Positions 8,312 to 55,016 of a stretch of DNA of 60,632 nt are shown one piece after another (the stretch's first letter is position 1; the number at the start of each line of letters is the position of its first letter). A model generated the notes under the pieces. It was not told the DNA's origin. It saw only the letters and a program-made list of their open reading frames with translations, and searched no databases. The stretch comes from a virus. The DNA is taken from positions 1 through 60,632 of the IMG/VR virus record IMGVR_UViG_3300017917_002028. One strand, given 5' to 3'. The position numbers were made by a program, and so were the translations under genes.

Positions 8312-8950
8312 TCAGTGTTGTGCGGTCACGCGCACGGACGCGCGGCCCAGTGCCGACACGGCCGCTTCGCGGGCGTCGTTGAAGCCCTGCTCGAAGCGCA
8401 GGCGACGATCGGCGCCGGTGGCCAGATCGGTCCACGGCTTGTTGGGCATGAGCATCAGCTTGGCGATGGCGCCTTCGGTGATCTGGTAGACAAACTGGTT
8501 CCAGATCCACTTCGGAAAGCCCGTGGCCGTCTGGCTGGGCTGCAGCGCCAGCGTCATGACCAGGCCGCCCGTGATGTTGTCGGCGGGCAGCGGGGCCAGG
8601 ATCACCTGCTCGGTGTCGATCTGGGTGTAGTGCTTGACGGCGGCGGTGGTGGTGCGCCAGCCCGGCAGTTCCTTGTTGAGCCAGACGACCGACTTAGGCG
8701 TGAGCGGCACCTTGTTGTATTGCACGTCGATGACCGCGGCGATCTCGGCGCCAGACGGCGGCTCCAGGTCGTACTCCAGAACCCCCGCCCGGATGCTTTG
8801 TGGCTCGGGGAAGAACTGCCAGATCCACGACTCGCGGCAAAACTCGATGACCGCCCGCTTGATGGCTTGTTCAGTGACCGGATCGCTGGGATCAGCGGCC
8901 AACTGAGGCAGCACTTCGCTGATGAGGTCGGAATACTGGATATTGGCCAC
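8312..8950 (-). CDS. Structural protein, possible head completion/adaptor
   Basis: 212-aa ORF with a GTG start at 8950, in the position expected between head and tail genes. Confidence 0.6.
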   Translation of the reverse strand: MANIQYSDLISEVLPQLAADPSDPVTEQAIKRAVIEFCRESWIWQFFPEPQSIRAGVLEYDLEPPSGAEIAAVIDVQYNKVPLTPKSVVWLNKELPGWRTTTAAVKHYTQIDTEQVILAPLPADNITGGLVMTLALQPSQTATGFPKWIWNQFVYQITEGAIAKLMLMPNKPWTDLATGADRRLRFEQGFNDAREAAVSALGRASVRVTAQH

Positions 8951-9004
8951 GGCAGACGCCCCGATTGAGAATTGCTCAAGTATCGCGGCGGGGCCGCAAT
9001 TTGA

Positions 9005-9412
9005 TTAAAGCCCCGGGGTCACGGGCGGCACGTCGCGCTCGAATTCCTCGATCGCGTCGATCAGCAGTTTTTTCGACTTGGTGGCGTCCAGATCCTTGTC
9101 CCACTTGGCCTTGGCCAGTGCCACCAGTTCGGCCTTGCTCATCTTCTCCAGCGGCTTGGCAAGGCTCGCCTGATCGATCTGCACGTCCTGGCCGTCCTCG
9201 TCGGTGACATCGACGGTGGTGGGCTGGTTGACGATGCCCGCGTCCTCATCGTTGACCACATCCCACTGGTCGGGGAATTTCAGCAGTTGCTTGGCCTGCT
9301 CGGGGGTGACTTCCTGCACGTCGCCGGGGCCGTTCCAGACCTTGCCGGACTTGGCCACGTTGTCGAAGCAAGTGGGCTTCTTGCCGACGTAGACGATCTT
9401 GATGAGGGACAT
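9005..9412 (-). CDS. Hypothetical acidic virion-module protein
   Basis: Start at MSLIKIVYVGKK..., preceded by GGAGAAAACC. Confidence 0.6.
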   Translation of the reverse strand: MSLIKIVYVGKKPTCFDNVAKSGKVWNGPGDVQEVTPEQAKQLLKFPDQWDVVNDEDAGIVNQPTTVDVTDEDGQDVQIDQASLAKPLEKMSKAELVALAKAKWDKDLDATKSKKLLIDAIEEFERDVPPVTPGL

Positions 9413-40901: not shown

Positions 40902-41141
40902 ATGCCGTTCAGTCTTGTGCCGACCCCAGCCCTCGAACTCATCATCGAAGAATCGGACCACCCGCACGCAGACAAAGCCGTCGAAGAACTGCGAAAGCTG
41001 CGTGACATCAATTGTCACCTGCTGACACATTTCGTTGCGATCAAACAACAGACGGAGGCCAGCACTGCCGGCCTCCAGTCCTTAGTCCGCGAGATCGAGC
41101 CCGAGGCGCCCCCGCATCTCTCTGGGCGCCTGCTTGAGTAA
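40902..41141 (+). CDS. Possible 79-aa protein at the int-distal end (moron candidate)
   Basis: The composition is non-junk. Against it: weak SD, only moderate GC3, a 60-nt convergent overlap of its 3' end with the giant gene, and the giant gene's terminator hairpin inside it. Confidence 0.3.
   Translation: MPFSLVPTPALELIIEESDHPHADKAVEELRKLRDINCHLLTHFVAIKQQTEASTAGLQSLVREIEPEAPPHLSGRLLE
41039..41076 (-). terminator. Terminator of the late operon
   Basis: The minus strand reads GGAGGCC-9 nt-GGCCTCC starting 5 nt after the TAA, followed by GTCTGTTGTTTGA. Confidence 0.6.
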
Positions 41142-44100
41142 GCGGCCGTCCTTGTCGATGCCCATCTGCCGCGCCTTGTCACGGATCTGATTGGGCTTGA
41201 TGACGATCGGCGTATCCGGGTTGCGCTTGTTCCAGGTCTCCAGCCGCTGCTGGGCTTCGGTCACCAGCGCCGGATCGCTGTCCACAATGCCGCGCACCCA
41301 CTGGTCCACGATGCTGGACTCGGTGCGCTTTTGCAGCCCGATGTCCTGCTGCACCGGCATGGTCTTGCGAGTCTCCTGCGCCACCTTGGTCGGGTTGAAG
41401 CCGATGCTCTTGACCGCGATGTCGGTGCCGTCCACGTCCACCACCTTGCGGCCCTTGGCGTCCGTGGCGTAGCCCTTCTTGGTCATCTCCACGGCGGCCA
41501 GCACGTCCTTGACCGCCTTGGGCGCAAGGTTCTGCAGGGCCTTGCCGGCGTTGCCTTCCACGGCCGCGTCGTAGGCGTCCCCGATCTGGCTGGCCATGCC
41601 TGCCGTGGGGCCAAAGATCTCGGCCACCTCGCGCCCACGGCCTTGCTCGTTGCTGGGTTTGAGCAGGCCGGTACCGGGGATCAGGTTGCCTAGACCCAGA
41701 CGGCCCGAGAAGTCGAGCGGCAACTTGGACGACACGCCGTACAGGAACAGGTCGCCCATGGTCTTGCCCAGAATCTCGTGCGCGAGCCGGCGCTTGTTGC
41801 GGCGCATGTTGGTGTCCAGGCCGAACATCTGCCCCACGGTGTCGATCAGGTCGTCGAGATCCTGCGCGAATGGCAGGCCCTCGGCGCCGGATGCGAGCAT
41901 CAGCACGGCCAGCATGGTCAGCGCGGCCCGCTTGCCCTCAGGCCCGCCACGCTTCCACATGCGCGAGAGCAGTTCGAGGTACATCAGGCTGAACTGCTTG
42001 AAGGTCAGGATGGCGCGGCCAACAGTGTTTTGTGCCCAGTTGGGTCGGTTGACCTTGTTGTAGATGCCCTGCGTTTCGTTGACCGCCCTCACCGCGAAGG
42101 CGTAAGGGTTGCGCTCGCCGTTGGCCTGCGCCACTTCCCATGCCGCGATGAACGTCAGGCGGCGGTTGAAGCCTTCGGCCAGGGCGAACATCGAGCCCCA
42201 CAGCGTCAGGAAGGCGCTGACCCGGGCGCGGGCATCTTCGCTACCGGCCTTGATCGCCTTGCCTGCGCCGGGGATCTTGGCCAGGGTGTTGACCAGATTG
42301 GAGGCCACGCCCTGGGCGCCGACGCTGTAGAGGTGGAAGATTTCCTGAGCGTCAACGATGCCCTCCTGCGCGGCCCGCTTGAGTGCCGTGCGCAATTCGT
42401 CATCGGTGATCTGCTTGCGCCCCATGGCGTAGGGCAGCGCCTGCGTGATCGCCTTGGTGGCCACCGGGATGCCGAACTGCGACAGGTACGGGGCAGTCAT
42501 CATGACGGGCTGCGTCAGGTTGACCACGGCCGCGGCGACTGAGCCGCCCAGGAACCACGCGAACATCGTGGAGGAAATCTGGGCGCCGTCGTCGCTCGGG
42601 TTCATCACGAACTTCTTGAGCCGGATGGCCTCGTCCAGCACGTCGCCCTTTTCCTTGGGGATGTACTTGATGGCGTTGTTCAGGTCGCGCAGGTAGTAAC
42701 GCTGCGCGGCAAACCGGCCGTTGCTGGTGATGAAGTTCGACAGCACCCGGGGCAGATCCTGGCTGAAACCTTCGGTGCCCTTGCGCTCCAGGCGGCGCTT
42801 CAAGGCGCTGCGCTCGGTCATGGCCAGTTCGATGTACTTGCGCATGGCCGTGTCAGCGCCGATCGCCTCGGCAAACAGCGCCAGCGTCTCGGGGCTGATC
42901 CCGGCGTACATCTCGTGGCTGGTCTGGCTCTTGGTGCCGGCCTTCACCCGCACGTCATCACGGTCGGCGTACAAGGCGGCCTTCTCGGCGCGGACCGCCT
43001 TGGCCTCGCCCTCGGTCTCGTACTGGCCGTAGAACAGCGTGATCGAGTCGCCGTTTTCGTCGCGGGCCACGTTGCCGGTGGTCGGGTCGATCGCCTGCAC
43101 GGTCACGGTGAACTTGCCGAAACGCATCAGCGGCGCATACCCGGCCGCCTTGAGGTTCTTGCCGGTCACGAAGATCTTTTCGATCTGGCGCAGCGTGCGC
43201 TTGTAGCTCTCGCGTGCGGCCTCCAACTCGGCCTGCTGCTGGTCAGCGCCCATGCCGGCCGCGGCCTTGATCGCCCGGTCGAGCATCTTGATCTGCTTCT
43301 TGATCTCGCCGGTAATCAGCGCCTGGGCCTGGCGGGGGTTGTCGATGATGGTCCGGCGCATGGCCTTGGGCACAAAGCCCTGGGCCATGGCGTAGGCCTC
43401 GGCCGCGGCCAACTCGTCGAGGCTGGCGTCGATCGCGTTGCGGGCCTGCTGGTACAGGGCCCACGACTGTTCGGTCGCACCCGGGCGGGCCATGAATTCG
43501 GCCATGGTCCAGACGCGGCCCTGCATGACGCTATCGCCGGCCAGCGTGCCGTCGAAGATCGCCTGGGCGGCATGCTCCAGATTCTTGTCGGCCTTCTTGC
43601 CCTTGACCATGGTGGCCAGCGCCGACTTCACATCGTCCACGCGGGGCAGCACGCCCGGGGCCAGTTCGGCCGGGCGAATCGAGGTCAGCGAGACCTCGTT
43701 CTGCATGGCGTTGACGTAGCCGAACACCTTGCCGAAGTGCTTGTCCTTGAGGGCCTTGTTGAACTGGGTGGAGAGCGTCTTGTCGTAGGCGCCGAAGGTC
43801 TTGAGGCTCTTGTCCCGGTTGCCAAAGAACTGGATCAGGTTGTTCTGGGCGCGGCGGGTGATGTCGTTGAACGTCGGGGCACCGTTTGAGGAACCGGACC
43901 GCTCAACCAGCATCTTCTCGGACTGCATGGCGCCGTCGGTGCGCATGACCTCGCGCAGTGCCTTGAGCACCGGCGCATCGCTGCGCAGGCCCAGCACGCC
44001 CTTGACGCGCTCGATGAACTCCTTGAACCACTGCACGGCACGCGACACCCACGAACCGCGCGCTTGGAACCGGCCGGACAGGATGCGGGTGGCGTTGACC

Positions 44101-47100
44101 GCCCAGAACTCGGACGGGCTGTAGAGCTGGTAGTGCTTGTCGTAGGTCAGCGTGCCGCTGCCAAAGGCATCACGCACCCGGTCCGATGCCTTTTGATCGC
44201 CGGTCATGCTGGCCTTGAGCATGTCGCGCATGAGCTCCTGAACCTCGGGGGTCGCAGCCTTGTAGGCGGCATCCCAGGCGCGTTGCCATGCCTGCAGCAC
44301 GCCGTCCTGCACTTCCTTGGGCATCATGCGCTCGGTGTGGTGCAGGATCTCGTGCACCGCCGAACCGACGTTTGCCTTGCCGGCGATCAGCTTCATGATG
44401 CGGGGCAGCGGCATGTACTCGGCCGCCTGGCCGCGCTCGCCCTCGCTGCGAATGCTGATGCCCAGGCCATCGGCCACGTCCGGGTTCTGGTCGAGCAACC
44501 ACTGGGCGAAGTCGGCGGCCTCGCGCGTCACCGTGTTGTCGGCCACGCCACGGCGCATCTGGGCCACGATCCATTCGGCGCCACGACGGCGGCCGGCCAC
44601 GACGCGGCGGTACTCGCGCTCGTCGCGCTGGTTGTTCAGTGACGCCGTGATCTCCCGCACGGCCAGCACGTACTCGGCCTCGGTGATCTTGCCGTCGTCC
44701 AGGCGCTGCTCCAGCTTGTTGAGCTTCTGGCGGGCATTGACGCGCACGGGCTCGGGCACGCCGGCAAAGGCGCTGGCCGGGGCGCGGGCGATGTCCATGA
44801 TCTTGGGCCCCGGCGCCTCGCCATCGAGCGAAGTCTTGCCGGCACGCAGGGCGGCCACCACGGCCTTGTGGCGCTCGTTCAGGCTGCGCAGTTCTTCCTC
44901 TTTCGGGAAACCCCGGGCCAATTCCTTCTTGGCGTTCTCGGCGTCCTTCTCGAACTGCACCACGGCATCGGCCGTGCGCTCCTTCCACTTGGCCGCGTTG
45001 TCGGCCAGGTTGTCCATGCGGGTGATGAACCCGGACACACTGAACTTGTCGTTCTGGCCGTAGGTGGTGCTGCTGACCAGGTGGTCGCGGTGCAGGGTGA
45101 AGAACGTCACGCCCACCGAATCCCGGCGCAGGTACAGGTCAATGCCGCGGTACGAGCCGACCTTCTTGCCTTCGCTGGTGTCGGCATTGGCCACCATCTT
45201 GCTGGCCAGTTCCTCGGTGTTGACGCCCTTCTCGCCGTCGATGGTCAGGCCGAACACCTTGAGGCCCAGCTTGTCCTTGTTCTTGGGCTGGACCTGGCCG
45301 GCGAACTCGTCGGCCATCTTGGCGCTGCTGTATACCCATCCAGTTTTGTTCTCGGCGTCCTTGATCTTCTTTTCCAGATCGAAGCGGCTGCGCTCCCACG
45401 ACTTCTTCATGGCTTGCAGCTTGCGCAGGTCCGTGCGCATGCTGATTTCTTCGAGGATCAGCGGATTGCCCGAAGCGCCGGCCTTCATCTCGGCGGCGTT
45501 GGCCGATTCGCTGGAAACGTCCTCGACCTCGCGCAGCGTGGCGTCGGTCTTGAACTGCTCGATCGCCCGGGCCTTGGTCTCGATGATCTCCCACATGCGC
45601 GAGTCATAGGTCTGCTTGGTGGCGTAGCGGTAGATCGCCACCTCGAACCCTTCGGGATCGGCCTCGTAGAACTCGTTGCCCTGGCGAATGATGCGGCCCT
45701 CGCGCTGCTCCAGATCGGCCGGGCGCCACGGTGCATCCATGTGATGCAGGGCCACCAGCTTGGACTGCACGTTGGTGCCGGCGCCCATCTTTTGGGTGGA
45801 GCCCAGCAGCACGCGCACCTCGCCCGCGTTGACGGCCGCGAACAGGGCCGCTTTCTTCTCGTCGGTGTTGTAGTCGTGGATGAAAGCGATCTGCTCGGCC
45901 GGCATGCCCTTGGCGATCAGCTTGGCCTTGATGTCGTCGTAGACCGAGAAATTGCCGCCACCGTCGGCCAGCATTTCGTCCAGGCTGATTTCTTTGGCGC
46001 CCTCGGCGCTGTCCTCGTCCGATCCGGTGTCGTCGGCCTGGGCCTGCTGTTCTTCCCAGCGGGCGATGTAGTCGTCGATCGCCTCGCTGGCAATGGCGCG
46101 GCCCTGCACGCGCTCGCCGAACGTCGTCAGATCGGTCTTGGCCATCTTGGCGTTGGCGGCGTCCACGGCTTCGGCCTTGGTGCGCCCTTCGGCCACGGTC
46201 AGGCCGCTCGTGCGCTCGATGACCTGATAGACCTTGCCGGTCTTGTGCGTGAAGAACTGGAAGTCAGGCGCGGCCTGCAGGTTCAGGGGAACACCGGCCA
46301 CGTGCAGCAGGGTCTCGCCGCCGTTCACGCGCAGGAAGAACGTGGGCACCTTGGCGGCTGCATCGGCCGTGGCCTGCCCCTTGGCGCTGGCCGGTACCGA
46401 CAGGTCGCAGAACACCAGTTGCGTGCCCTTGCGCTCGTCGTTGGCCTTCCAGGTGTCGAAGATCCGGGACACGGCCGCATTGATCTTGCTGCCCTCGAAG
46501 TCGGGGGCGTTCTCGTCGATCAGGCGGTAGTCGAGACCGGCCTTGCGGGCCTGGCCGGTGATGGCCAGCGGGATCTCTTTCGGGTTGGTCTTGCTGGCCA
46601 CCTTCCAGTTTTCCAGCCGGTAGACGATCGTGCCCGACTTGAATGTGATGACCGGCTGGCCGTTTTCGTCGAGCTTGGGCTTGCCGTCGGCGTCCATCTC
46701 CTGCTGCGGGATGCCGATGAATTCGGCCTGCAACGGGCTGCGCTCAGTCACCACGTTCTCGGGCCGGCCGCCCTTGACCTTGGGCAGCGGGAACCGCTTA
46801 CCCTGGGCCTCGGCATCACGCATCAGGTCAGCGCGGCTCACGGTGTCGGCAATCTCGCCCCAGATCCCTTTCAACTCGGGCAGGTTGGCGAACTTGCGGA
46901 ACCGGGTTTTCTGCACGAACTTGCCGGCCGCGTTCATTTCCCAGTCGCTGGTGGACTGGCCGAACGTGTTGGCCCAGGCGTCGAAGTTGTGGATGCCGCG
47001 GGCCTTGAGCGTTTCGTACTGGAGGAAACGCTGCATGTGGAACACCTCGGCGATCGAGTTCGCCAGCGGCGTGCCGGTGGCAAAAAACACGTTCTTGCCG

Positions 47101-50100
47101 CCTGCCCGCTCGGACACATAGCGCGTCTTGACGAACATATCGAAAGCGCGGGTCGATCCCTGCGGGCTACCCAGCCCGGCCACGCCCTGCAGCGTCGTGG
47201 TGTAGAACAGGTTTTTGAACTCGTGGGCCTCGTCCACGGCCAGCGCGTCCACGCCCAGATCGGCGAAGTCGAGAGCGTCGTCCTGCGAGCGGTCGGCGAG
47301 CTTCTTGAGCTTTTCCTCGATGCGGGTCTTGGCTCGCTCCAGATCCTTGACCGTGAAGCGGGCGCCCTTGTCGGCCTTGGCCTGCTGGATGGCCAGCGTC
47401 AGTTCGGCCAGTTGGTCGTCCAAGATCTTCTGCTCGGTCTCGGCCGGTACCGGAATGCGGCCGAACGACGAATGCGCCACCACCACCATGTCCCAGTCGC
47501 CCGTGGCGATGCGCGAGAACAGCAGTTTGCGGCGGTCCTTCTGGAAATCCTTGCGGCTGGCGGCCAGCACGTTGGCGCCGGGGTACAGCGCCAGAATGTC
47601 CTTGGCCCACTGCCCGACCAGGTGATTGGGCACCACGATCATGGGCTTGTTGGCCAGGCCCAGCCGGCGCATCTCCATCATGGCGGCGATGATGGCGTAG
47701 GTCTTGCCGGCGCCGACCACGTGATCTGCCAGCCCCTTGCCTTCCACCAGTGAGCGGTACACCCAGTTCAACTGGTGCGGGCGCAACTGAATGGCGGTGT
47801 TCATGCCCGGAAGCGTCAGGTGCGAGCCGTCGTACTTGCGCGGGACGTTGGTGTTGTAGGTGTCGTTGTAGGACCGGGCCAGCCGCTCGCGGCGGTCGTT
47901 GTCCTTCCAGATCCAGTCCTGGAAAGCCTCGGCCAGCGCGTCGGCCTTGCCCTGCGCCGCGGCGGTTTCCTCGGCGTTCAGCACCCGCTGGGTGTTGCCG
48001 TCGGGCAGACGGATCTCGTCATAGACGGCCACCTGCTTGTTGCTCATCAGCGTTTCGATGATGCGGTGGGCGCCCATGCGCTCCGTGCCAAACGTGGTGT
48101 TGGTCTCGGTCGGCGTGCCGGCGCCCACGTCCACCGACCAGTTGCCGGTGGCCGGCAGGAAAGCGCCGGACATCTTGCCGCCGAAGGTCTCCTTCACAAA
48201 CGCGGCATAGTCGGACAGCGGCACCCAGGGCGAGCCGATCTTCACGAAGATGTCGCTCGGGTTGATGTCGGCCGGCTGCACCTTCATCAGCGCGGCCACG
48301 TTGCGCTGGAAGCGGGCGTCCTTCTCGGCAGCAGCGCGGGCCTGCGTCAGCGCGGCCTTGACGTTGCCCGACAGGTACAGGTCAGCAGGCACCCAGCCGC
48401 TGGCCGGATCTTCGAACACCAGGTCGCCCAACTCGGCCACGATGGTGTCATGGGGCTTGTTGCCATTCCGATCACCCAACAGGCCCGACATGTACCCCAT
48501 GTCGATGCGGCCGCGCTCGTTGAGCGATGCCAGCATGGCCTCTTTGGCCGTGCCCGCCTTGGTGACTTGCGCCACCGGCGTCTGCACCCGCTTGGTGAAG
48601 ATCGTCGCCTTGCTGGCCTTGGGCTGGCGGGGCTTCTGGCCGGTGGACTTGGCCACGGCCTCGGTCACGCCCTTGTCGAACTTCGCTTCGAGCGACAGCA
48701 CCAGGGCCGCGTCGGAGTCGTCGGCAAACAGGCGCTTGTTGGTCTGGCCGTTGAGGTAGCCGTATTTCTTGACGAAGGCGTCGTAGGCCTTATTCAGTGC
48801 CGCACGGTTGGCCTCGATGTCGGCGTCTTTGCTGGTGGCGCTTTTCTCCAGTGCCAACTGCTGGCGCACCAGGTCGCGCAGACCGATCATGCCGACCATG
48901 CGCTCCAGTTCCTTGCCTTCGCGGGCCACGGGCACCGACTGGCGCTCGCCGTTGAAGTCGGGCATGCGCTGGTAGAGCTTGCCGTCCTGCAGGAAGTAGC
49001 CGTACTCGCGCACGTTGTCGGCCGTGCTGACCTTGTTGGCCTTCTCGCCGGCCTCGATGAAGGTGCTCTTGCCCGTCTGGAACACGCCCTCGGGCAGTTT
49101 CTCGATGGCTTTGGCCATCAGGTCGGGCAGGTTGTCGCCCTCGCGGGCCGACAGGGTGGGCTCGTTGGCGCGGTACATCGAACCGGCCAGCGTCATCTCG
49201 CCCAGCATCATGTCGGGGTTGGCCACGAAATACTTGTTGACCGGGATCGGCTGGCCGCTCTCGCGGTCGGTCAAGTCGGCCATGCCATTCCACTCGGCCG
49301 TGTTGGCCTCCACGCCGTCCGTCAGCTTCTGCAGGAAGATGATGTCGGTCGTGACCTCGGTGTTGGCGTTCTCCTGGAATGCGTTGTTCGGCAGGCGGAT
49401 CGCGCCCAGCAGGCGGGTGCGCTCGGCCAGCCATGCGCGGGCCGCTTTGCCGCGGGCGTCGTTGGCATCCATCAGGCCCTTGGACACCACCATGGCCAGC
49501 ACGCCACCGGGTTTCAGGGTTTCCACCGACTTGGCGAAGAAGAACCCGTGGATCTTGAACTTGCTGATTTCCGGGTTGCTCGGGTCGTAGAGCGACTCGT
49601 CACCGAACGGCGGGTTGCCGGTGGCCACGTCGAACGACTCGGGCGCGAGCTTGATGTCCTGGAACCCGATCGGCGCGTTGACCTTGGCCTGCGGGTACAA
49701 CTGCTTGGCAATGCCGCCCGTGATGTGGTCGAACTCCACGCCGAACAGACGGGACTTGCCGCGGGCACCGACCGGCATCAGGCCGAAGAAATTGCCCGAA
49801 CCCAGTGACGGCTCCAGCACGGCGCCGTTCTTGAACCCGATGCGGGCGAGACCCGCCCAGATCGCCTCGACCACCGGCTTGGCCGTGTAGTGGGCGTTGC
49901 GGGTGGACGATGCGGCCGTGGCGTACTCGTCTGCCGTCAGCAGTTCCTTGAGCTCGGCGTATTCCTTCGACCACTGCTTGTTCTTGGGGTCGAAGGCCTG
50001 GGGCATGCCACCCCAGCCGATGTACTTGGCCAGCACCGCCTGCTCGGCGGCCGTGGCCTGGCGGCCCTCGGACTCCAGCGACTTCAACAGCCGGATGGCC

Positions 50101-53100
50101 GCGATGTTGTTGGCGTACTTGGTCTTGGCACCCTGACCGGCGAAGTTCAGTTCGTCGGTGATGGTGAAGTTGGTCGCTACAGTGTCAGCGGCAGTTCGGC
50201 CATCTGCAGCTTTTCCGTCAGGCTGACGTGCTGCATCTGCGGGTCGATCCGATACTCGTTCGCCTGCACCAGTTGCGGCTTGAGGTTCTTGAGCATCGGC
50301 AGGAGCTTGTTGTCCGCGGTCAGTTGCTTGAACTTGCTCGGACTCCCCTCCAGCCAAATCGACAGCAGTTCGTTGGTCACCAGCAGCGGCAGGCCCGCCT
50401 TGCTCAGTGCCTGCATTTGATCCTTCGGCAGTGCTGCCATCACGTCGCTGTGGGTTGCCATCTTGTGCTTCCTTCGGTGTTTCCAGATTTTCCGCCTTGG
50501 CAGCCGGTTGCGCAATGCTCGATTGCGCGGCTCGCGTTGCTTCTTGCTCAACTGCCTGGGCAGCCAAATCGGCCAGTTCGGTGCTGGCCAGGTTCACCGG
50601 CATCCAGCGGTTTTGACTGCCGCCGTAGGGGTCGCCGGCCTTGGTCACGCGCATCATCACCGACACGCCCGACGTGGTAGTGGGCACGGGGCCACGCAGC
50701 GAAGTGCCGCCGATCGTGATGTAGATGCCCCGCTGCATGTCCGGGTGGAACATGGCCAGGCTCACGTCGCCCGACGTAGCCACACCCGACTCGTTCACGT
50801 TCACCGGCTTCATGGGCTTACCGGCCCGATTGGTGGCCGGCTCGAACCCGCGTGCCTGTAGCGTTTTCGCAACGTCCTGCAGGTACTTGCGGGTGTCGTT
50901 GAGGAACTGCGTTTTCACCGGCCCGCTGGGGCGTTCATCGCGGCTGTCGTAGCCGTCGATGCTGCTCACGCCGTAGTCGTCGCGCAGGGTCAGCGCACCA
51001 GCCGGTTTTTCTTTCTTGCGCTGGGGCTTCTCCACCTGGCCGATGGCCTGCTCGGTGCCGGGCGCAGGCTTCATGTGCTCGGCCGTGCCCTGCGTTTCCA
51101 TCAGGTCGATCTCGGCCGGCGTGCTCATGCCGGCTGTGTCCAGACCGGGGTAGTGGCGCACGCCCTCGTAGAAACTGCGCAGGTACGGCCGGATCTTGTC
51201 GCCGAAGTCCTCCACCATGGCCTTGGCGTAATCCGAATACTTGCGCACGCCCGCCTCGATGTAGGCACCGGCCAGCGTCACGCCGTCCACCAACACCTCG
51301 GGGTCGATTCCCGAATTCATGTTGCCCAGCTTCGAGCGCAGGCGTGCGCGGGCTGCGGCCACCTTGTCCTCGGTGAACAGCTTGTTGCCGGCAAACTTGC
51401 TGGTGTCGGTCGCGGGCTGGTCGGCCGGGGCCGTGGTGCCCGCTTGGCCATCGTAGCCCTGCATCCACTCGAAAGCGGCCTTGTCGGTCAGGCCTGCAGG
51501 CGGCGTGCGGGGCTGGCCGGCCTTGGCGGCTTCGGCGCCCTGGGCCATGGGCTCGACCTGCTCAGATTTCCCAGTTTCTTCGACACGTTTCTCGGACGTG
51601 TCGATTTCAGCGGTGTTTTTGGGCGTGGCGCGCTTGGCCTTGGCCTCTTTCTCGGTCTTGGGCTTTGGCGCTGCCTCCACCTTGCGCAGCATGCTGGCGC
51701 CGACCGTGGCGTTGCCGACCGTGACGAGCCCCATGTCGGCATCCATGATCTTGTCGATGGTGCCGCGTACCACCCTGCCCTCGCGCTTCGATCCATCGGG
51801 CATGGTGTAGGTGCCGGGCGCGGTGTACTCCACCTGGTCGCCCTTCTTGAAGTTTTTGAGGGCTTCGCGGTTGGCTGCTTTCTGGCGCTCGATCTGCTCG
51901 TAACGCGCCTTTACGGCGTCGGCGTTGGCTGCTGGTGCTTCTTGTCCTTGCGCTTCTGCTTGCTGGGCTTGAGGGGCTTGAGTGCCATTCTTCGCTTCCT
52001 TTTGTTGGCGTGCTTCTTTCTCGGTCCTGGGCTTGGCCGGCGCCTCATCGAACGGGATGTCCGAATCGTCGGCCTGCTCAACCACGGGCGCGGTGTTCTG
52101 GATCGCCTCACGGTCCAGCCGCGCCTCGTCGTCGATCAGCGCATCTTCGGCTGGTAGCCCTTCGAGTCGTTGGCCTGCTTCGGTACCGACTTGGGCGGCT
52201 GGGGCTTGCCCTGCGGGTTCTTGCTGGGCGGCTGGCCCGCTTGCGAGCCCATCGCCGACGACGGCACCTTGATCGAGTGCAGGCCCAGTTCCTTCGTTGA
52301 GTGCTTGCGTTTGAACATCTTGGTTCTCCTGTGCGGCCACGAGGCCGGGTTCTGTGGCGGCCGGGAATGTCTGGCCAGCCTCGGGTTGCTCGACCGGCCC
52401 GGCCGCGGGGGCAGGCACTTGTGCCTGATTCTGGAATTGCGACTGATCGCTGGGGATGCTGGCAGCGCCAAACCCGTACAGGGCACGCAGCACCTGCGGG
52501 TCGTTCTGGGCTCGCTCCAGCCCGGCGAGTTCCTGCTGCTCGGCCGGCGACAGGCCGACCCCGGGCACGTCCTGATCGACGATGCCCGTCTCGCCCACGA
52601 CGGTCTGAATGGAGCCGTCGCGCTTCTCGCGCAACTGCTGGTAGCGGGTGGCCGCAAAGTCCAGCACGTCCTGGTCGCTCACGTCCTCCACGCCAGGGGG
52701 CGTTGCGGCCGGCGTCGGCAGCACGGTCGCCTCGGGGATGCCGGCCTGCTCGGCCAGTTCGCGCACGATGTTGTCGGCGGTCTCCACGAGCGGGCTGGCG
52801 GGCGGATTGATCGCGGGCGCCCCGGCCTGCTCGGCCGGCTCCACCGGCAGGGCGCCGGCGTCAAACGTGGGTTCGATGCGGCCGTCGGGCGTGACGTTGG
52901 CCGACACCGGCGCGGCATCGGGGGCCATGGTGGGCCCGCTGCGCGGCGCCAGGCCCTGCGTGTTCCACTTGTTGAGTGCCTGCTGACGCGCATATTCGGC
53001 GTCGGCGTCGGTCGTGGTCTTTCCGTCCTCGCGCATGAAGCGCACAACCTTGGAAACGCCCGTGGTGCCGCCCGCCATGACGCCCGACTGCATGATCGTC

Positions 53101-55016
53101 TGGGCAATGGTGTCGGCCACCTGCTTGAGATAGTCGGCGCCCGTGGCCTGCGGGTTGAGGCCGACCGGGGCGAACTTGTCGGTACCGAACTGGCCGGTGG
53201 TGGTCAGCAATTCGCCCGGCACTTCCTTCTTGAGTGCGGACCACAGGAATCCGACGATCTGGTCACTGGGCATGCCGCGGGCGGCCGCCTTGATCGCGGC
53301 CATCTGCTCGCGCAGGCCGAACTTCTCGCCCAGCACCTCGAAGGCTGCAAAGATCGATGCGCGAGTGGCCGCGTCCTGGGCGGACTGACCGGCCGCGCGG
53401 CCGTCGCTGTACTCCTGCCCGAACGACTGCACGGCCATGCCGGCCAGCGGAATGGCCTGCGTGCCGGCCTTGACGCCACCAATCAACAGGGGCAACTGCT
53501 GGCCGATGCTGCTGATCGCGCCCTCGAAATTGCGCTCCAGGAACGTGCCCGACTCGCCAATCGCCTGCTCTTTGCCGCGGGTCCAATCACCGCCCGCCTT
53601 GGCCGCGGCAGCCGCGCCCTCCAGCCCGTAGACCTCGGACAAGAACTGGCCGTAGCCAGACACCGCCTTGCCGATGCCAAGCCCCGCCTTGGCCACGCCA
53701 CGGACCACCGGGTTGTTGAGGCCATTGGGCCCGCCCGCCTGGTCAAACAGGGCTTTGGTGTCGAAGTCGAACGTGCTGCCCTGCGCCACACCGCGGCGCT
53801 GCATGAACTCGATCTCGCGGCCCGGTACCACACCGGCCGCTGCGGCCTCACGCGCTGCACGCTCGGCAAACGCCGGATCTTCGCCAGCGGCCACCAGGCG
53901 CTGCACGCGGGCCTCGATGCGGGGATCGAGCTTGGCCGTGGTGGGCGTGGCCACCTGATCGGCCTGCTCGAACACACCGGACCGCTCGCGGGCCAGCATG
54001 CCCACCCAGCCCGATTGCTCGGCCATGGCCTTGCGCTGATCGGGCGTTGCGGCGTCCCACTGCGCATTGAAGGCGGCCCGCACCTCGGGGCGCACCGGCA
54101 CCTTGCTGGCCGTGGGCAGTTCGCCCGGGGCCGGGGCGTTCTCCAGCACCGATGCCGGCTTCTTGTCGCCCGGTCGGATGCCTGCCTTGGGGTAGATGCC
54201 AAACGCAGCTTTTTCGGCCTCGGGCGGGATTGGCGCCACCTGGTCGTCGGACTTGAGCGGCATCTGCAGGAACTGCTGGCGCAGGCCCTGGCCTTCGGCG
54301 CCCGCGTGCGGCGCGATCCAGTAGTCGAAGTACGCGGCCTTGGCCTTGAACTTGTCGTCGGCTGAGAGCTTGCGGAATTCGGGATTGGCCTCGATGTCGT
54401 CCCACTTGGGCGCCTTGCCCAGATCCGGCAGGGTGGCGGCCTGCGCCGACGGCACGACGTTGCCCACTCGCTTGAGCACGTCGGCCACGTAGCCGGAAAC
54501 GCGCTTGCCGTTGCCGTCGGCGCGGTCGTTGCGCCACGCACTGCCCTGCCCCGGGTTGACGTTGCCTTCGCCCGAGAAGTAGCCCGCGGCGATCCTGGCG
54601 GGGTCGTTGCCGAACTTGCCGGCCAGATCCTTGATGATGCGCACCCCGACGCGCATGTTGTCCTCGGGGCTGTCGATGCGCTCGCCGGCGCGGGCGTAGC
54701 GGCGGAAGGTGTCGGGCATGATCTGCATGCCGCCACGTGCGCCGTCGGTGCTGGTGCGGGCGTTTGTGCCGCCGCTGGACTCCTGGCCGTAGATGGCGCC
54801 GATCACCGGCAGCAGACTTTCGGCGCCCTCTTGGGCGGCGATGCTGCGGATCACGTCCTGGCTGACGGGCTGCGTTTTCTGCGCGGCTGGCGCCGGCTTA
54901 GGCTGATCGAGAAAACCGGAGAGGTCTTGCCCGCCCGTGGCCGGTTGGGGGGAACCCCCAGAACCTGTGTTGTTGTTGCTCGAAAAAAAGTCAGACAGGT
55001 TCTGGTTGAGTTCCAT
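41082..55016 (-). CDS. Giant (4,644 aa) virion-associated polyvalent protein: lytic transglycosylase, linker/LPD-type modules, DarB-like N6-adenine methyltransferase plus SF2 helicase, HExxH module, hydrophobic C-terminal region
   Basis: A single open frame with an ATG start. Motifs were read in the translation (see the sub-features). It is the last gene of the virion module, after the internal virion proteins. Confidence 0.85.
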   Translation of the reverse strand: MELNQNLSDFFSSNNNTGSGGSPQPATGGQDLSGFLDQPKPAPAAQKTQPVSQDVIRSIAAQEGAESLLPVIGAIYGQESSGGTNARTSTDGARGGMQIMPDTFRRYARAGERIDSPEDNMRVGVRIIKDLAGKFGNDPARIAAGYFSGEGNVNPGQGSAWRNDRADGNGKRVSGYVADVLKRVGNVVPSAQAATLPDLGKAPKWDDIEANPEFRKLSADDKFKAKAAYFDYWIAPHAGAEGQGLRQQFLQMPLKSDDQVAPIPPEAEKAAFGIYPKAGIRPGDKKPASVLENAPAPGELPTASKVPVRPEVRAAFNAQWDAATPDQRKAMAEQSGWVGMLARERSGVFEQADQVATPTTAKLDPRIEARVQRLVAAGEDPAFAERAAREAAAAGVVPGREIEFMQRRGVAQGSTFDFDTKALFDQAGGPNGLNNPVVRGVAKAGLGIGKAVSGYGQFLSEVYGLEGAAAAAKAGGDWTRGKEQAIGESGTFLERNFEGAISSIGQQLPLLIGGVKAGTQAIPLAGMAVQSFGQEYSDGRAAGQSAQDAATRASIFAAFEVLGEKFGLREQMAAIKAAARGMPSDQIVGFLWSALKKEVPGELLTTTGQFGTDKFAPVGLNPQATGADYLKQVADTIAQTIMQSGVMAGGTTGVSKVVRFMREDGKTTTDADAEYARQQALNKWNTQGLAPRSGPTMAPDAAPVSANVTPDGRIEPTFDAGALPVEPAEQAGAPAINPPASPLVETADNIVRELAEQAGIPEATVLPTPAATPPGVEDVSDQDVLDFAATRYQQLREKRDGSIQTVVGETGIVDQDVPGVGLSPAEQQELAGLERAQNDPQVLRALYGFGAASIPSDQSQFQNQAQVPAPAAGPVEQPEAGQTFPAATEPGLVAAQENQDVQTQALNEGTGPALDQGAVVGDGLASGPAAQQEPAGQAPAAQVGTEAGQRLEGLPAEDALIDDEARLDREAIQNTAPVVEQADDSDIPFDEAPAKPRTEKEARQQKEAKNGTQAPQAQQAEAQGQEAPAANADAVKARYEQIERQKAANREALKNFKKGDQVEYTAPGTYTMPDGSKREGRVVRGTIDKIMDADMGLVTVGNATVGASMLRKVEAAPKPKTEKEAKAKRATPKNTAEIDTSEKRVEETGKSEQVEPMAQGAEAAKAGQPRTPPAGLTDKAAFEWMQGYDGQAGTTAPADQPATDTSKFAGNKLFTEDKVAAARARLRSKLGNMNSGIDPEVLVDGVTLAGAYIEAGVRKYSDYAKAMVEDFGDKIRPYLRSFYEGVRHYPGLDTAGMSTPAEIDLMETQGTAEHMKPAPGTEQAIGQVEKPQRKKEKPAGALTLRDDYGVSSIDGYDSRDERPSGPVKTQFLNDTRKYLQDVAKTLQARGFEPATNRAGKPMKPVNVNESGVATSGDVSLAMFHPDMQRGIYITIGGTSLRGPVPTTTSGVSVMMRVTKAGDPYGGSQNRWMPVNLASTELADLAAQAVEQEATRAAQSSIAQPAAKAENLETPKEAQDGNPQRRDGSTAEGSNAGTEQGGPAAAGDQRTAVDLAGGESEQVQATDRGQQAPADAQEPQAATGAGERVSDRPADAARQPDGKAADGRTAADTVATNFTITDELNFAGQGAKTKYANNIAAIRLLKSLESEGRQATAAEQAVLAKYIGWGGMPQAFDPKNKQWSKEYAELKELLTADEYATAASSTRNAHYTAKPVVEAIWAGLARIGFKNGAVLEPSLGSGNFFGLMPVGARGKSRLFGVEFDHITGGIAKQLYPQAKVNAPIGFQDIKLAPESFDVATGNPPFGDESLYDPSNPEISKFKIHGFFFAKSVETLKPGGVLAMVVSKGLMDANDARGKAARAWLAERTRLLGAIRLPNNAFQENANTEVTTDIIFLQKLTDGVEANTAEWNGMADLTDRESGQPIPVNKYFVANPDMMLGEMTLAGSMYRANEPTLSAREGDNLPDLMAKAIEKLPEGVFQTGKSTFIEAGEKANKVSTADNVREYGYFLQDGKLYQRMPDFNGERQSVPVAREGKELERMVGMIGLRDLVRQQLALEKSATSKDADIEANRAALNKAYDAFVKKYGYLNGQTNKRLFADDSDAALVLSLEAKFDKGVTEAVAKSTGQKPRQPKASKATIFTKRVQTPVAQVTKAGTAKEAMLASLNERGRIDMGYMSGLLGDRNGNKPHDTIVAELGDLVFEDPASGWVPADLYLSGNVKAALTQARAAAEKDARFQRNVAALMKVQPADINPSDIFVKIGSPWVPLSDYAAFVKETFGGKMSGAFLPATGNWSVDVGAGTPTETNTTFGTERMGAHRIIETLMSNKQVAVYDEIRLPDGNTQRVLNAEETAAAQGKADALAEAFQDWIWKDNDRRERLARSYNDTYNTNVPRKYDGSHLTLPGMNTAIQLRPHQLNWVYRSLVEGKGLADHVVGAGKTYAIIAAMMEMRRLGLANKPMIVVPNHLVGQWAKDILALYPGANVLAASRKDFQKDRRKLLFSRIATGDWDMVVVAHSSFGRIPVPAETEQKILDDQLAELTLAIQQAKADKGARFTVKDLERAKTRIEEKLKKLADRSQDDALDFADLGVDALAVDEAHEFKNLFYTTTLQGVAGLGSPQGSTRAFDMFVKTRYVSERAGGKNVFFATGTPLANSIAEVFHMQRFLQYETLKARGIHNFDAWANTFGQSTSDWEMNAAGKFVQKTRFRKFANLPELKGIWGEIADTVSRADLMRDAEAQGKRFPLPKVKGGRPENVVTERSPLQAEFIGIPQQEMDADGKPKLDENGQPVITFKSGTIVYRLENWKVASKTNPKEIPLAITGQARKAGLDYRLIDENAPDFEGSKINAAVSRIFDTWKANDERKGTQLVFCDLSVPASAKGQATADAAAKVPTFFLRVNGGETLLHVAGVPLNLQAAPDFQFFTHKTGKVYQVIERTSGLTVAEGRTKAEAVDAANAKMAKTDLTTFGERVQGRAIASEAIDDYIARWEEQQAQADDTGSDEDSAEGAKEISLDEMLADGGGNFSVYDDIKAKLIAKGMPAEQIAFIHDYNTDEKKAALFAAVNAGEVRVLLGSTQKMGAGTNVQSKLVALHHMDAPWRPADLEQREGRIIRQGNEFYEADPEGFEVAIYRYATKQTYDSRMWEIIETKARAIEQFKTDATLREVEDVSSESANAAEMKAGASGNPLILEEISMRTDLRKLQAMKKSWERSRFDLEKKIKDAENKTGWVYSSAKMADEFAGQVQPKNKDKLGLKVFGLTIDGEKGVNTEELASKMVANADTSEGKKVGSYRGIDLYLRRDSVGVTFFTLHRDHLVSSTTYGQNDKFSVSGFITRMDNLADNAAKWKERTADAVVQFEKDAENAKKELARGFPKEEELRSLNERHKAVVAALRAGKTSLDGEAPGPKIMDIARAPASAFAGVPEPVRVNARQKLNKLEQRLDDGKITEAEYVLAVREITASLNNQRDEREYRRVVAGRRRGAEWIVAQMRRGVADNTVTREAADFAQWLLDQNPDVADGLGISIRSEGERGQAAEYMPLPRIMKLIAGKANVGSAVHEILHHTERMMPKEVQDGVLQAWQRAWDAAYKAATPEVQELMRDMLKASMTGDQKASDRVRDAFGSGTLTYDKHYQLYSPSEFWAVNATRILSGRFQARGSWVSRAVQWFKEFIERVKGVLGLRSDAPVLKALREVMRTDGAMQSEKMLVERSGSSNGAPTFNDITRRAQNNLIQFFGNRDKSLKTFGAYDKTLSTQFNKALKDKHFGKVFGYVNAMQNEVSLTSIRPAELAPGVLPRVDDVKSALATMVKGKKADKNLEHAAQAIFDGTLAGDSVMQGRVWTMAEFMARPGATEQSWALYQQARNAIDASLDELAAAEAYAMAQGFVPKAMRRTIIDNPRQAQALITGEIKKQIKMLDRAIKAAAGMGADQQQAELEAARESYKRTLRQIEKIFVTGKNLKAAGYAPLMRFGKFTVTVQAIDPTTGNVARDENGDSITLFYGQYETEGEAKAVRAEKAALYADRDDVRVKAGTKSQTSHEMYAGISPETLALFAEAIGADTAMRKYIELAMTERSALKRRLERKGTEGFSQDLPRVLSNFITSNGRFAAQRYYLRDLNNAIKYIPKEKGDVLDEAIRLKKFVMNPSDDGAQISSTMFAWFLGGSVAAAVVNLTQPVMMTAPYLSQFGIPVATKAITQALPYAMGRKQITDDELRTALKRAAQEGIVDAQEIFHLYSVGAQGVASNLVNTLAKIPGAGKAIKAGSEDARARVSAFLTLWGSMFALAEGFNRRLTFIAAWEVAQANGERNPYAFAVRAVNETQGIYNKVNRPNWAQNTVGRAILTFKQFSLMYLELLSRMWKRGGPEGKRAALTMLAVLMLASGAEGLPFAQDLDDLIDTVGQMFGLDTNMRRNKRRLAHEILGKTMGDLFLYGVSSKLPLDFSGRLGLGNLIPGTGLLKPSNEQGRGREVAEIFGPTAGMASQIGDAYDAAVEGNAGKALQNLAPKAVKDVLAAVEMTKKGYATDAKGRKVVDVDGTDIAVKSIGFNPTKVAQETRKTMPVQQDIGLQKRTESSIVDQWVRGIVDSDPALVTEAQQRLETWNKRNPDTPIVIKPNQIRDKARQMGIDKDGRLLKQAPREMRGRLGLDLAD
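44343..44357 (-). other. HExxH (HEILH) zincin-type motif in the giant protein
   Basis: ...GSAVHEILHHTERMMPKEV... No further metallopeptidase signature was verified. Confidence 0.45.
45650..47820 (-). other. SF2 (SNF2/DarB-like) helicase module of the giant protein
   Basis: VGAGKTY (about 47701-47725), DEAHEFKN (about 47212-47236) and QREGRIIRQGN (about 45678-45712). Confidence 0.8.
49050..50100 (-). other. N6-adenine DNA methyltransferase module of the giant protein
   Basis: NFTITDE...AIRLLKSLE...YIGWGG, motif I EPSLGSGNFF (about 49786-49815), motif IV NPPFG (49602-49616). Confidence 0.8.
50177..50461 (-). CDS. Candidate overprinted 94-aa gene in the +1 frame of the giant gene
   Basis: ATG 50459-50461 lies 6 nt after AAGGAAG (50468-50474). 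Stop is TAG 50177-50179. Hand-counted GC3 is 84% here, against 32% for the long frame over the same codons. The product is non-repetitive and Leu/Lys/Gln-rich (MATHSDVMAALPKDQMQALSKAGLPLLVTNELLSIWLEG...). Confidence 0.55.
   Translation of the reverse strand: MATHSDVMAALPKDQMQALSKAGLPLLVTNELLSIWLEGSPSKFKQLTADNKLLPMLKNLKPQLVQANEYRIDPQMQHVSLTEKLQMAELPLTL
52136..52318 (-). CDS. Second candidate +1-frame ORF (60 aa, Lys/Pro/Gln/Ser-rich) inside the giant gene
   Basis: ATG 52316-52318 follows AGGAGAA. GC3 is about 92%, against about 48% for the long frame. The product is low-complexity, so this may be a compositional shadow. Confidence 0.3.
   Translation of the reverse strand: MFKRKHSTKELGLHSIKVPSSAMGSQAGQPPSKNPQGKPQPPKSVPKQANDSKGYQPKMR
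54447..54854 (-). other. SLT-type lytic transglycosylase domain of the giant protein
   Basis: IGAIYGQESSGG (catalytic Glu-Ser), GGMQIMPDTF and AAGYFSGEG. Confidence 0.8.

Follow-up and report, generated by a model that had tools for sequence, protein, structure and literature searches.

Small genes embedded in larger ones are already known from phages, the closest described examples being Rz1, which lies in the +1 frame of lambda Rz, and genes B and E of phiX174, which lie within A and D, respectively. Each of these is a small open reading frame (ORF) inside a larger gene on the same strand with its own ribosome-binding site, both products are presumed to be made, and the embedded frame is taken to be the younger of the two. 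Here we describe a 94-codon ORF nested in a giant gene for a DarB-like polyvalent virion protein in a viral genome from IMG/VR (record IMGVR_UViG_3300017917_002028, positions 1 to 60,632; this whole stretch of 60,632 nucleotides is referred to as the window). On the basis of sequence comparisons, we consider it very likely that positions 50177–50461 of the minus strand are dual-coding and that the nested gene is independently translated. The ORF resembles Rz1 and the phiX174 genes in lying wholly inside the 41082–55016 gene, on the same strand and in the +1 frame, but differs from them in that the embedded protein is conserved, with a predicted fold and free-standing relatives, while the host frame is a poorly conserved spacer, and in that the host is a 14-kb multidomain gene with the overlap falling exactly in an inter-domain linker. 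What is unusual, then, is a polyvalent host of this size, the linker site, the constrained embedded reading, the occurrence in many phage genera, and that the gene has been overlooked.

The window is from a tailed phage, as we found genes for a portal, large terminase, major head protein, tail fibres and primase. The giant gene shares the SLT, methylase and SNF2 helicase architecture of the polyvalent DarB-like proteins such as P1 DarB and Bcep22 gp75, with Pfam placing an SLT (lytic transglycosylase) domain at amino acids (aa) 60–155, an Eco57I-type methylase at aa 1780–1875, a SNF2/ResIII helicase at aa 2409–2602 and a Helicase_C domain at aa 3040–3113, and so unites a cell-wall hydrolase, a DNA methylase and a SNF2-type helicase in a single protein. 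A tblastn search with this protein matched genes annotated as DarB-like ('DarB-like antirestriction') in 111 phage records. P1 DarB is carried in the virion and shields incoming DNA from restriction, and gp69 of phage JC1 is virion-associated (PMC9144972, PMC6630229). Unlike the domains of polyvalent proteins, the nested feature would be a second gene hidden in the linker. Neither overlapping or nested genes nor the TnpV family are mentioned in a survey of polyvalent proteins (Iyer et al. 2017, PMC5512222), and Bcep22-like phages have been described as having an embedded Rz1 (PMC9144972). The nested gene itself is unmentioned in PMC5512222, PMC9144972 and PMC6630229 and in the full-text literature searches we made, the original Bcep22 paper (Gill et al. 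2011) lying outside that scope. The first-pass annotation of the window, which was made from the letters alone, had suggested that the arrangement was undescribed; this agrees with the literature searched, and the GenBank features show only the giant coding sequence (CDS).

The nested ORF, the AAGGAAG motif at its spacing from the ATG, and the TAG two codons before the NFTITDE motif of the methylase were all found at the minus-strand positions given by the first-pass annotation, with an identical 94-aa translation. After the nested stop the long frame, by which we mean the frame of the giant gene, continues directly as ...TV-AT-NFTITDE, while in the +1 frame 44 open codons precede the nested ATG, with a stop at about 50596–50594. 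The GC content of third codon positions (GC3) in the overlap is 30/95 for the long frame and 79/94 for the +1 frame, in which the second-position count (GC2) is 30/94, and the hand counts of GC3 made earlier proved to be exact. By comparison, across the rest of the giant gene (45 windows of 95 codons) GC3 is 0.883 ± 0.068 with a minimum of 0.58, which puts the overlap well outside what chance would give. Among the approximately 40 ORFs of ≥80 aa that the giant gene has in alternative frames on the same strand, the nested ORF alone has a coding-like position profile (GC 0.59/0.39/0.81). An initiation signal of its own is provided by the AAGGAAG before the ATG, and Shine–Dalgarno (SD)-like motifs are kept in relatives; no sigma-70-like promoter or terminator was found near the nested start on the gene's strand. 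The coordinates of these features are listed in Table 1.

Table 1. Features of the giant gene and of the nested ORF in the window.
Feature	Position	Strand	Comment
Giant DarB-like polyvalent virion protein gene (long frame)	41082..55016	minus	Single ORF of 4,644 aa
Nested 94-codon gene, +1 frame (ATG 50461-50459, TAG 50179-50177)	50177..50461	minus	Small all-helical protein predicted
SD-like AAGGAAG, 6 nt upstream of the nested ATG	50468..50474	minus	Long frame reads Lys-Glu
95 long-frame codons overlapping the nested gene, giant protein aa 1519-1613 (DGNPQRRDG...RTAADTV)	50178..50462	minus	D/G/A/Q/R/T/E-rich spacer
Upstream part of the linker, long frame only, GC3 ~0.5	50463..50600	minus	Bears the nested SD; highly variable among relatives
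Start of methylase module (NFTITDELNFAGQGAK..., through the Eco57I-type catalytic region)	49391..50171	minus	Begins 2 codons past the nested stop

Two further stretches of the giant gene with low GC3 (0.45–0.6) and high first-position GC were noted at 52406–52106 and 52076–51870 on the minus strand. These were considered as additional nested genes and rejected, as they are Q/A/P/E-rich linkers in which the +1 frame is P/R/S/K-rich junk with stops.

The GC pattern of the overlap had been described as the normal coding signature of this genome carried by the +1 frame. The pattern is present, but it is not simply the codon signature of the genome and appears instead to be set by the sequence of the small protein together with the avoidance of stops in the long frame. 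The same pattern is seen in relatives with a GC content of 47–50%, such as VvAW1 (with a genome of 50% GC) and PalP_Y7, where the third position of the nested gene is 65–75% GC, far above the genome level, and synonymous codon choice in these two nested genes seems to be dictated by the avoidance of long-frame stops; we therefore regard the GC pattern as an outcome of dual coding. GC3 was for the same reason rejected as proof of which frame is the older.

Selection on the two frames was compared using the nested copies of close relatives. Pairwise nucleotide differences across copies by nested-frame codon position 1/2/3 were 0.22/0.18/0.33, which makes the long-frame third position the most conserved; suppressed variation at this position in related phages was the test that the first-pass annotation had proposed. 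The nested frame had the higher amino acid identity in 28/28 pairs of nested copies, with means of 72% for the nested and 54% for the long frame, and the median apparent dN/dS over these 28 pairs was 0.38 for the nested frame and 1.72 for the long frame. Selection on the nested frame would therefore appear to be on the protein sequence, and on the long frame only on staying open and in phase.

The openness of the long frame was assessed by resampling, in which the nested protein was fixed and its synonymous codons were resampled according to the gene's own usage. For the window the probability of the long frame being open was 0.23, and by itself the open long frame of the window proves little. 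The probabilities for other phages were 0.000 for VvAW1, 0.003 for LASTA and PalP_Y7, 0.007 for Atu_ph08, 0.009 for POI1126, 0.027 for USP_18, 0.055 for PEp14, 0.066 for the window relative L012, 0.072 for Mwe-JY07, 0.175 for Itty13, 0.18 for Gerry and 0.22 for 8P. The long frame nevertheless has no stops across the nested ORF in any of the 13 genomes resampled, nor in Bcep22 or PBC5, and every indel found between the nested stop and the methylase motif has a length divisible by three. Since the frame is open in 13/13 lineages at a per-genome chance of 0.000–0.23, we conclude that it is held open by selection, and the earlier suggestion that it would stay open by chance is weakly true for the window and false across the family. 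Both frames thus show signs of selection, the nested frame in its dN/dS, codon-position pattern and kept start and stop codons, and the long frame in having remained open throughout.

These data also bear on the reading of the +1 ORF as an untranslated chance or compositional shadow, with the GC pattern produced by a G/A/D/E/Q/R-rich linker. Codons starting with G or C are indeed used in such linkers, so that +1 GC3 rises and stops become rarer, GC3 also dips in two other linkers of the giant gene, and the GC pattern is the same whatever the GC content of the genome. However, in those two linkers the +1 frame is P/R/S-rich and has stops, the long-frame third position varies least, the nested protein is more conserved than the linker, and the small ORF is found intact where the long frame is dead, has free-standing relatives and a confident predicted fold. 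In our view the comparative data already refute this explanation, and we consider it highly improbable.

Homologues of the small protein were found in two settings. A search of 5.8 billion proteins with the window protein identified ten, of 85–98 aa and with 66–90% identity, and 16 clusters, all of them of 76–142 aa, were obtained when 1.84 billion representatives were searched with a profile. The nested class has the same arrangement as the window (L009, L010, L011, L013, L014–18, L019 and L012, a 61-kb contig), with the long frame open across the small ORF and continuing into the methylase module. Eight distinct window-type nested copies (60–90% aa identity) retain the ATG and stop, with seven of 94 codons and one of 85, and the methylase N-terminal motif is always just downstream of the nested stop at a distance of 2 (in the window) to approximately 14 codons. 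All nested copies of the window clade, and most of the other phages as well, have an AAGGA, GAGGA or AGGAG motif 6–10 nt before the ATG, and so the proposed conservation of the ATG, SD and stop in related phages was borne out in the window-type nested copies. The free-standing class consists of three unrelated small integrative elements with AlpA, primase, integrase and helix–turn–helix (HTH) genes (L001–3, L004 and L005–8), in which an intact small ORF is accompanied by a long frame that is either disrupted or lacks an upstream partner. A more distant member, one of the 16 profile clusters that was checked, is also free-standing (L030).

Among the nested class, L012 (contig JACCDG010286506.1, 61,054 bp) has a giant ORF of 4,626 aa with 76% identity to the window giant protein over aa 862–4644, while the first approximately 860 aa of the two do not align. 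It is probably a related phage genome, complete in length, in which the N-terminal module is a different one. Among the free-standing class, L005 has two family genes in tandem at 8657–9391 (also seen in L006–L008), of which one is of the 8P type (108 aa) and the other of the window type (94 aa), and in L005–L008 the tandem genes are followed by the remnant of a dead methylase N-terminus (NFTITDELNFVGQGAKTKYGN). The L005 element also carries a MmeI-type restriction enzyme, a PrtN-like activator and a HTH repressor. This locus looks like a capture of the nested gene out of phage giant genes. It should be noted that nucleotide and translated searches were less productive: megablast of the nested region against phages found no match, tblastn found none with the window small protein against phages and plasmids or with the Bcep22-type protein against plasmids, and scans using a pattern from the family alignment had no match in viral or genome contigs and found one locus, L012, in metagenomes.

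These homologues also allow us to consider whether the giant ORF is in reality three cistrons (an N-terminal gene, the small gene, and a methylase–helicase gene) with a long frame that merely happens to be open. At a genome GC of 65%, it is not unusual for an alternative frame to be open here, as the resampling result for the window shows. Gene callers have called the small ORF and the downstream methylase separately on short metagenomic contigs, and methylase homologues elsewhere start at or just before the same N-terminal motif (e.g. 'MFTITGELG' in P0012). The search with the methylase matched only proteins of <500 aa and no full-length giant relatives were obtained from it. On the other hand, the N-terminal frame reaches the methylase without a stop, so that ribosomes must continue through it, an open and in-phase frame is seen in 13/13 lineages including genomes of 47–58% GC in which the chance of this is ≤0.01, indels between the nested stop and the methylase motif occur in multiples of three only, the methylase module has no conserved start codon or SD, and the homologous giant protein of JC1 has been detected in virions (PMC9144972). 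We consider separate cistrons to be very unlikely.

The structure of the 94-aa product was predicted by AlphaFold2 from an input of 11 sequences, and the prediction called for in the first-pass annotation gave a confident fold of seven helices with a pLDDT of 89 and a pTM of 0.80. When the PDB was searched by sequence, the only matches were designed helical repeats, a result that we attribute to a compositional effect.

The nested gene is not confined to close relatives of the window. An unannotated +1-frame ORF of 90–120 codons was found in the equivalent linker of the giant genes of Itty13, PEp14, 8P, USP_18, LASTA and VvAW1, and in the same position in Atu_ph08, PBC5, POI1126, Mwe-JY07, Gerry, PalP_Y7 and Bcep22. 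In Bcep22 the nested ATG is preceded by the SD-like sequence GAAGGAGG. Further tblastn searches matched 21 phage records and one phage-like Brucella plasmid with the PEp14-type protein, and 41 Ralstonia and Burkholderia phage records with the Gerry/Bcep22-type protein, and JC1 is among the phages with a nested ORF in the same linker. From this comparison the nested ORF would appear to be conserved throughout the Bcep22/PBC5/PEp14-like giant genes, being present in at least 13 phage lineages. The annotated feature beneath these tblastn matches is the giant CDS only in all records but one, the exception being the old PBC5 record, where it is orf33, the N-terminal half of a gene that is split there, and the nested gene is absent from every deposited annotation examined (~70 GenBank records).

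Such a wide distribution makes it extremely improbable that two compensating indel errors in the assembly have thrown an ordinary part of the giant protein out of frame. A switch out of frame and back within approximately 290 bases, with open frame on both sides, does have the look of a pair of indel errors, but this out-of-frame layout, its ATG, SD and stop included, is seen again in independent assemblies and in the ~70 GenBank phage genomes from many laboratories and platforms, and the nested frame ends in a conserved stop codon, unlike any in-frame domain.

PBC5 (L031) raises another explanation, in which a programmed +1 frameshift or a natural frameshift fuses the N-terminal part of the giant protein to the 94 aa, which would then be the C-terminal domain of a shorter product made instead of, or beside, the free protein. 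In this phage (AF448724.1 24724–27963) orf33 encodes 2,185 aa in frame with the nested ORF and ends at the nested stop, with the methylase as a separate orf23, and in the window the +1 frame is open for the 44 codons before the ATG. Against this, the nested-frame stop in PEp14, LASTA and VvAW1 is only 2–5 codons upstream of the ATG, leaving hardly any room for a shift, and a SD precedes the nested ATG nearly everywhere, PBC5 included. Moreover, the long frame of PBC5 is still open across the nested ORF, which fits a single recent or erroneous indel in this 2001 sequence. We regard a frameshift product as unlikely. It was also observed that a single indel relative to Atu_ph08, located just upstream of the nested SD, would explain the split PBC5 gene, either as a sequencing error or as a natural variant.

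The relationships between the small proteins of these phages were examined by profile comparison. The 8P protein is of the window type, scoring 29 bits against a model built without it, and hhalign of the window type with the PEp14 type gave probabilities of 91% (E 1e-6) and 83% (E 9e-6), with a shared core of W-x-E-x-x-P-x-K-F-K-x-L...G-x-L. On this evidence we take the window-type and PEp14-type proteins to be homologous. Pfam TnpV (PF14198), a family found in the Clostridium transposon Tn4451 and many conjugative elements, was matched by 19 of the 21 PEp14-type proteins with scores of ≤20.7 bits (E down to 1e-4, profile positions 22–82) and weakly by the Bcep22 protein (14.2 bits), all below the gathering threshold of 27 bits. 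TnpV is like the small protein in size (~100 aa), helical fold and mobile-element setting; the window protein itself has no direct match and is linked to this family only through the hhalign comparison with the PEp14 type. TnpV genes are free-standing and are not known to be nested. In PHROGs, the nested sequence is represented solely by the tail of the PBC5 orf33 profile. It was noted that the PEp14 and VvAW1 nested proteins match positions 2084–2173 of PHROG 938, which is a profile of 2,185 positions labelled 'endolysin'. PHROG 938 is likely to have been built on the frameshifted PBC5 orf33, and its label to be misleading for that part.

Between the giant proteins of 8P (L022) and USP_18 (L025) identity is 85–100% before the linker and 20–45% from the start of the nested gene on, and these two genes would appear to be mosaics with a breakpoint at the linker; they were also found to be dissimilar over the first approximately 400 aa. 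L016 combines a window-type nested gene and methylase with a different upstream module. Both the 8P/USP_18 breakpoint and L016 argue that the nested gene travels with the methylase–helicase part. In Atu_ph08 (L032) and PBC5 an additional conserved domain (GPFGPILRGYEGKWREAALELERRQSGDAI...TWLLTAFE) separates the nested gene from the methylase module, and so the nested gene is not always directly beside the methylase.

Dual coding of the linker would work as follows. Ribosomes would start internally on the giant-gene mRNA at the AAGGAAG and nested ATG to make a folded, all-helical protein of 94 aa, while the long frame would be translated through the same bases as a flexible spacer of approximately 95 aa that connects the virion and cell-wall modules at the N-terminus of the giant protein with its methylase–helicase part. 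The small gene and the methylase–helicase may form one exchangeable cassette, and this association would imply that the small protein works with that module. It is possible, though here we can be no more than tentative, that the small protein is a partner of the methylase–helicase, e.g. a helper in folding or packaging, or a modulator of the enzyme.

The first-pass annotation had read the locus as a small gene overprinted on a linker of a polyvalent virion protein. The shared DNA and the small gene's own SD and ATG stand, but the direction of overprinting is probably the reverse and the arrangement is not peculiar to the window. De novo overprinting would produce an embedded frame that is the younger and lacks homologues elsewhere, and here there are free-standing homologues and a remote similarity to TnpV. 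The small protein is probably the constrained and older reading, with the linker overprinted on the small gene, because the protein is folded and conserved, the linker is low-complexity and fast-evolving, and TnpV are free-standing genes. This suggests that the small gene came first, and that the giant gene arose or lengthened when the small gene and a methylase–helicase gene were taken into a longer ORF that reads through the small gene in its −1 frame. The free-standing copies were considered as the ancestral state, but this was rejected for L004 and L005 as the remnants of dead methylase N-termini indicate that they derive from nested ones. There is some likeness to the out-of-frame remodelled families of Escherichia coli (PMC8788219), where a coding stretch is likewise re-read in another frame within another protein; unlike that case, the original frame would have been kept here and both readings long retained across many phage genera.

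Several points weigh against dual coding and the order of events proposed here. Translation of both frames across the segment is read from sequence alone, and the sequences compared are kin so that 13 open frames are not 13 independent trials. No significant match to the small protein was found in Pfam, PHROGs, NCBIfam or PADLOC, and Foldseek comparisons of two models with PDB and BFVD found no fold match. The similarity to TnpV is sub-threshold, with no TnpV match for the window protein itself, and the Gerry/Bcep22, USP_18 and PalP_Y7 ORFs are placed in the family by their position and size, the shared motif and weak scores. Finally, the derivation of two free-standing copies (L004 and L005) from nested copies weakens the small-gene-first order, and no unfused three-gene ancestor was found among the sequences examined.

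The annotation of the giant gene itself may be at fault in one phage. It was observed in Itty13 (L020, NC_070969.1 4691–9514) that the DarB-like giant ORF is open over the whole 4.8 kb on one strand with a GC3 of 0.88, and that RefSeq has three 'hypothetical protein' CDS there on the opposite strand (PQC19_gp01–03). These are probably antisense shadow ORFs called instead of the real giant gene.

Overlapping genes are usually seen as new frames in the old genes of small viruses, while here they would be hidden in tailed phages of approximately 60 kb, and have been overlooked even in well-studied phages (Bcep22, JC1, PEp14 and the Ralstonia biocontrol phages) and in candidates for phage therapy. 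Annotation pipelines should check the linkers of giant genes for coding signal, and existing proteomic data could be re-searched for the nested product. Knock-outs and truncations of giant genes may have confounded phenotypes, given that the nested gene adjoins the antirestriction methylase–helicase. With one frame bearing all of the protein-level constraint and the other only staying open, the locus would illustrate a route by which multidomain genes can grow through a neighbour without losing it. As a wider suggestion, which we think might be correct but would not yet favour over its being wrong, the giant DarB-like genes could have formed by fusion of a virion-protein gene to a methylase–helicase gene across a pre-existing TnpV-like gene, whose other frame became the linker. 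The small gene would then persist as the obligate hidden partner (a chaperone, packaging adaptor or regulator) of the injected methylase–helicase, exchanged with it as a two-gene cassette, and the free-standing copies in satellite-like islands would be captures, possibly for phage interference.

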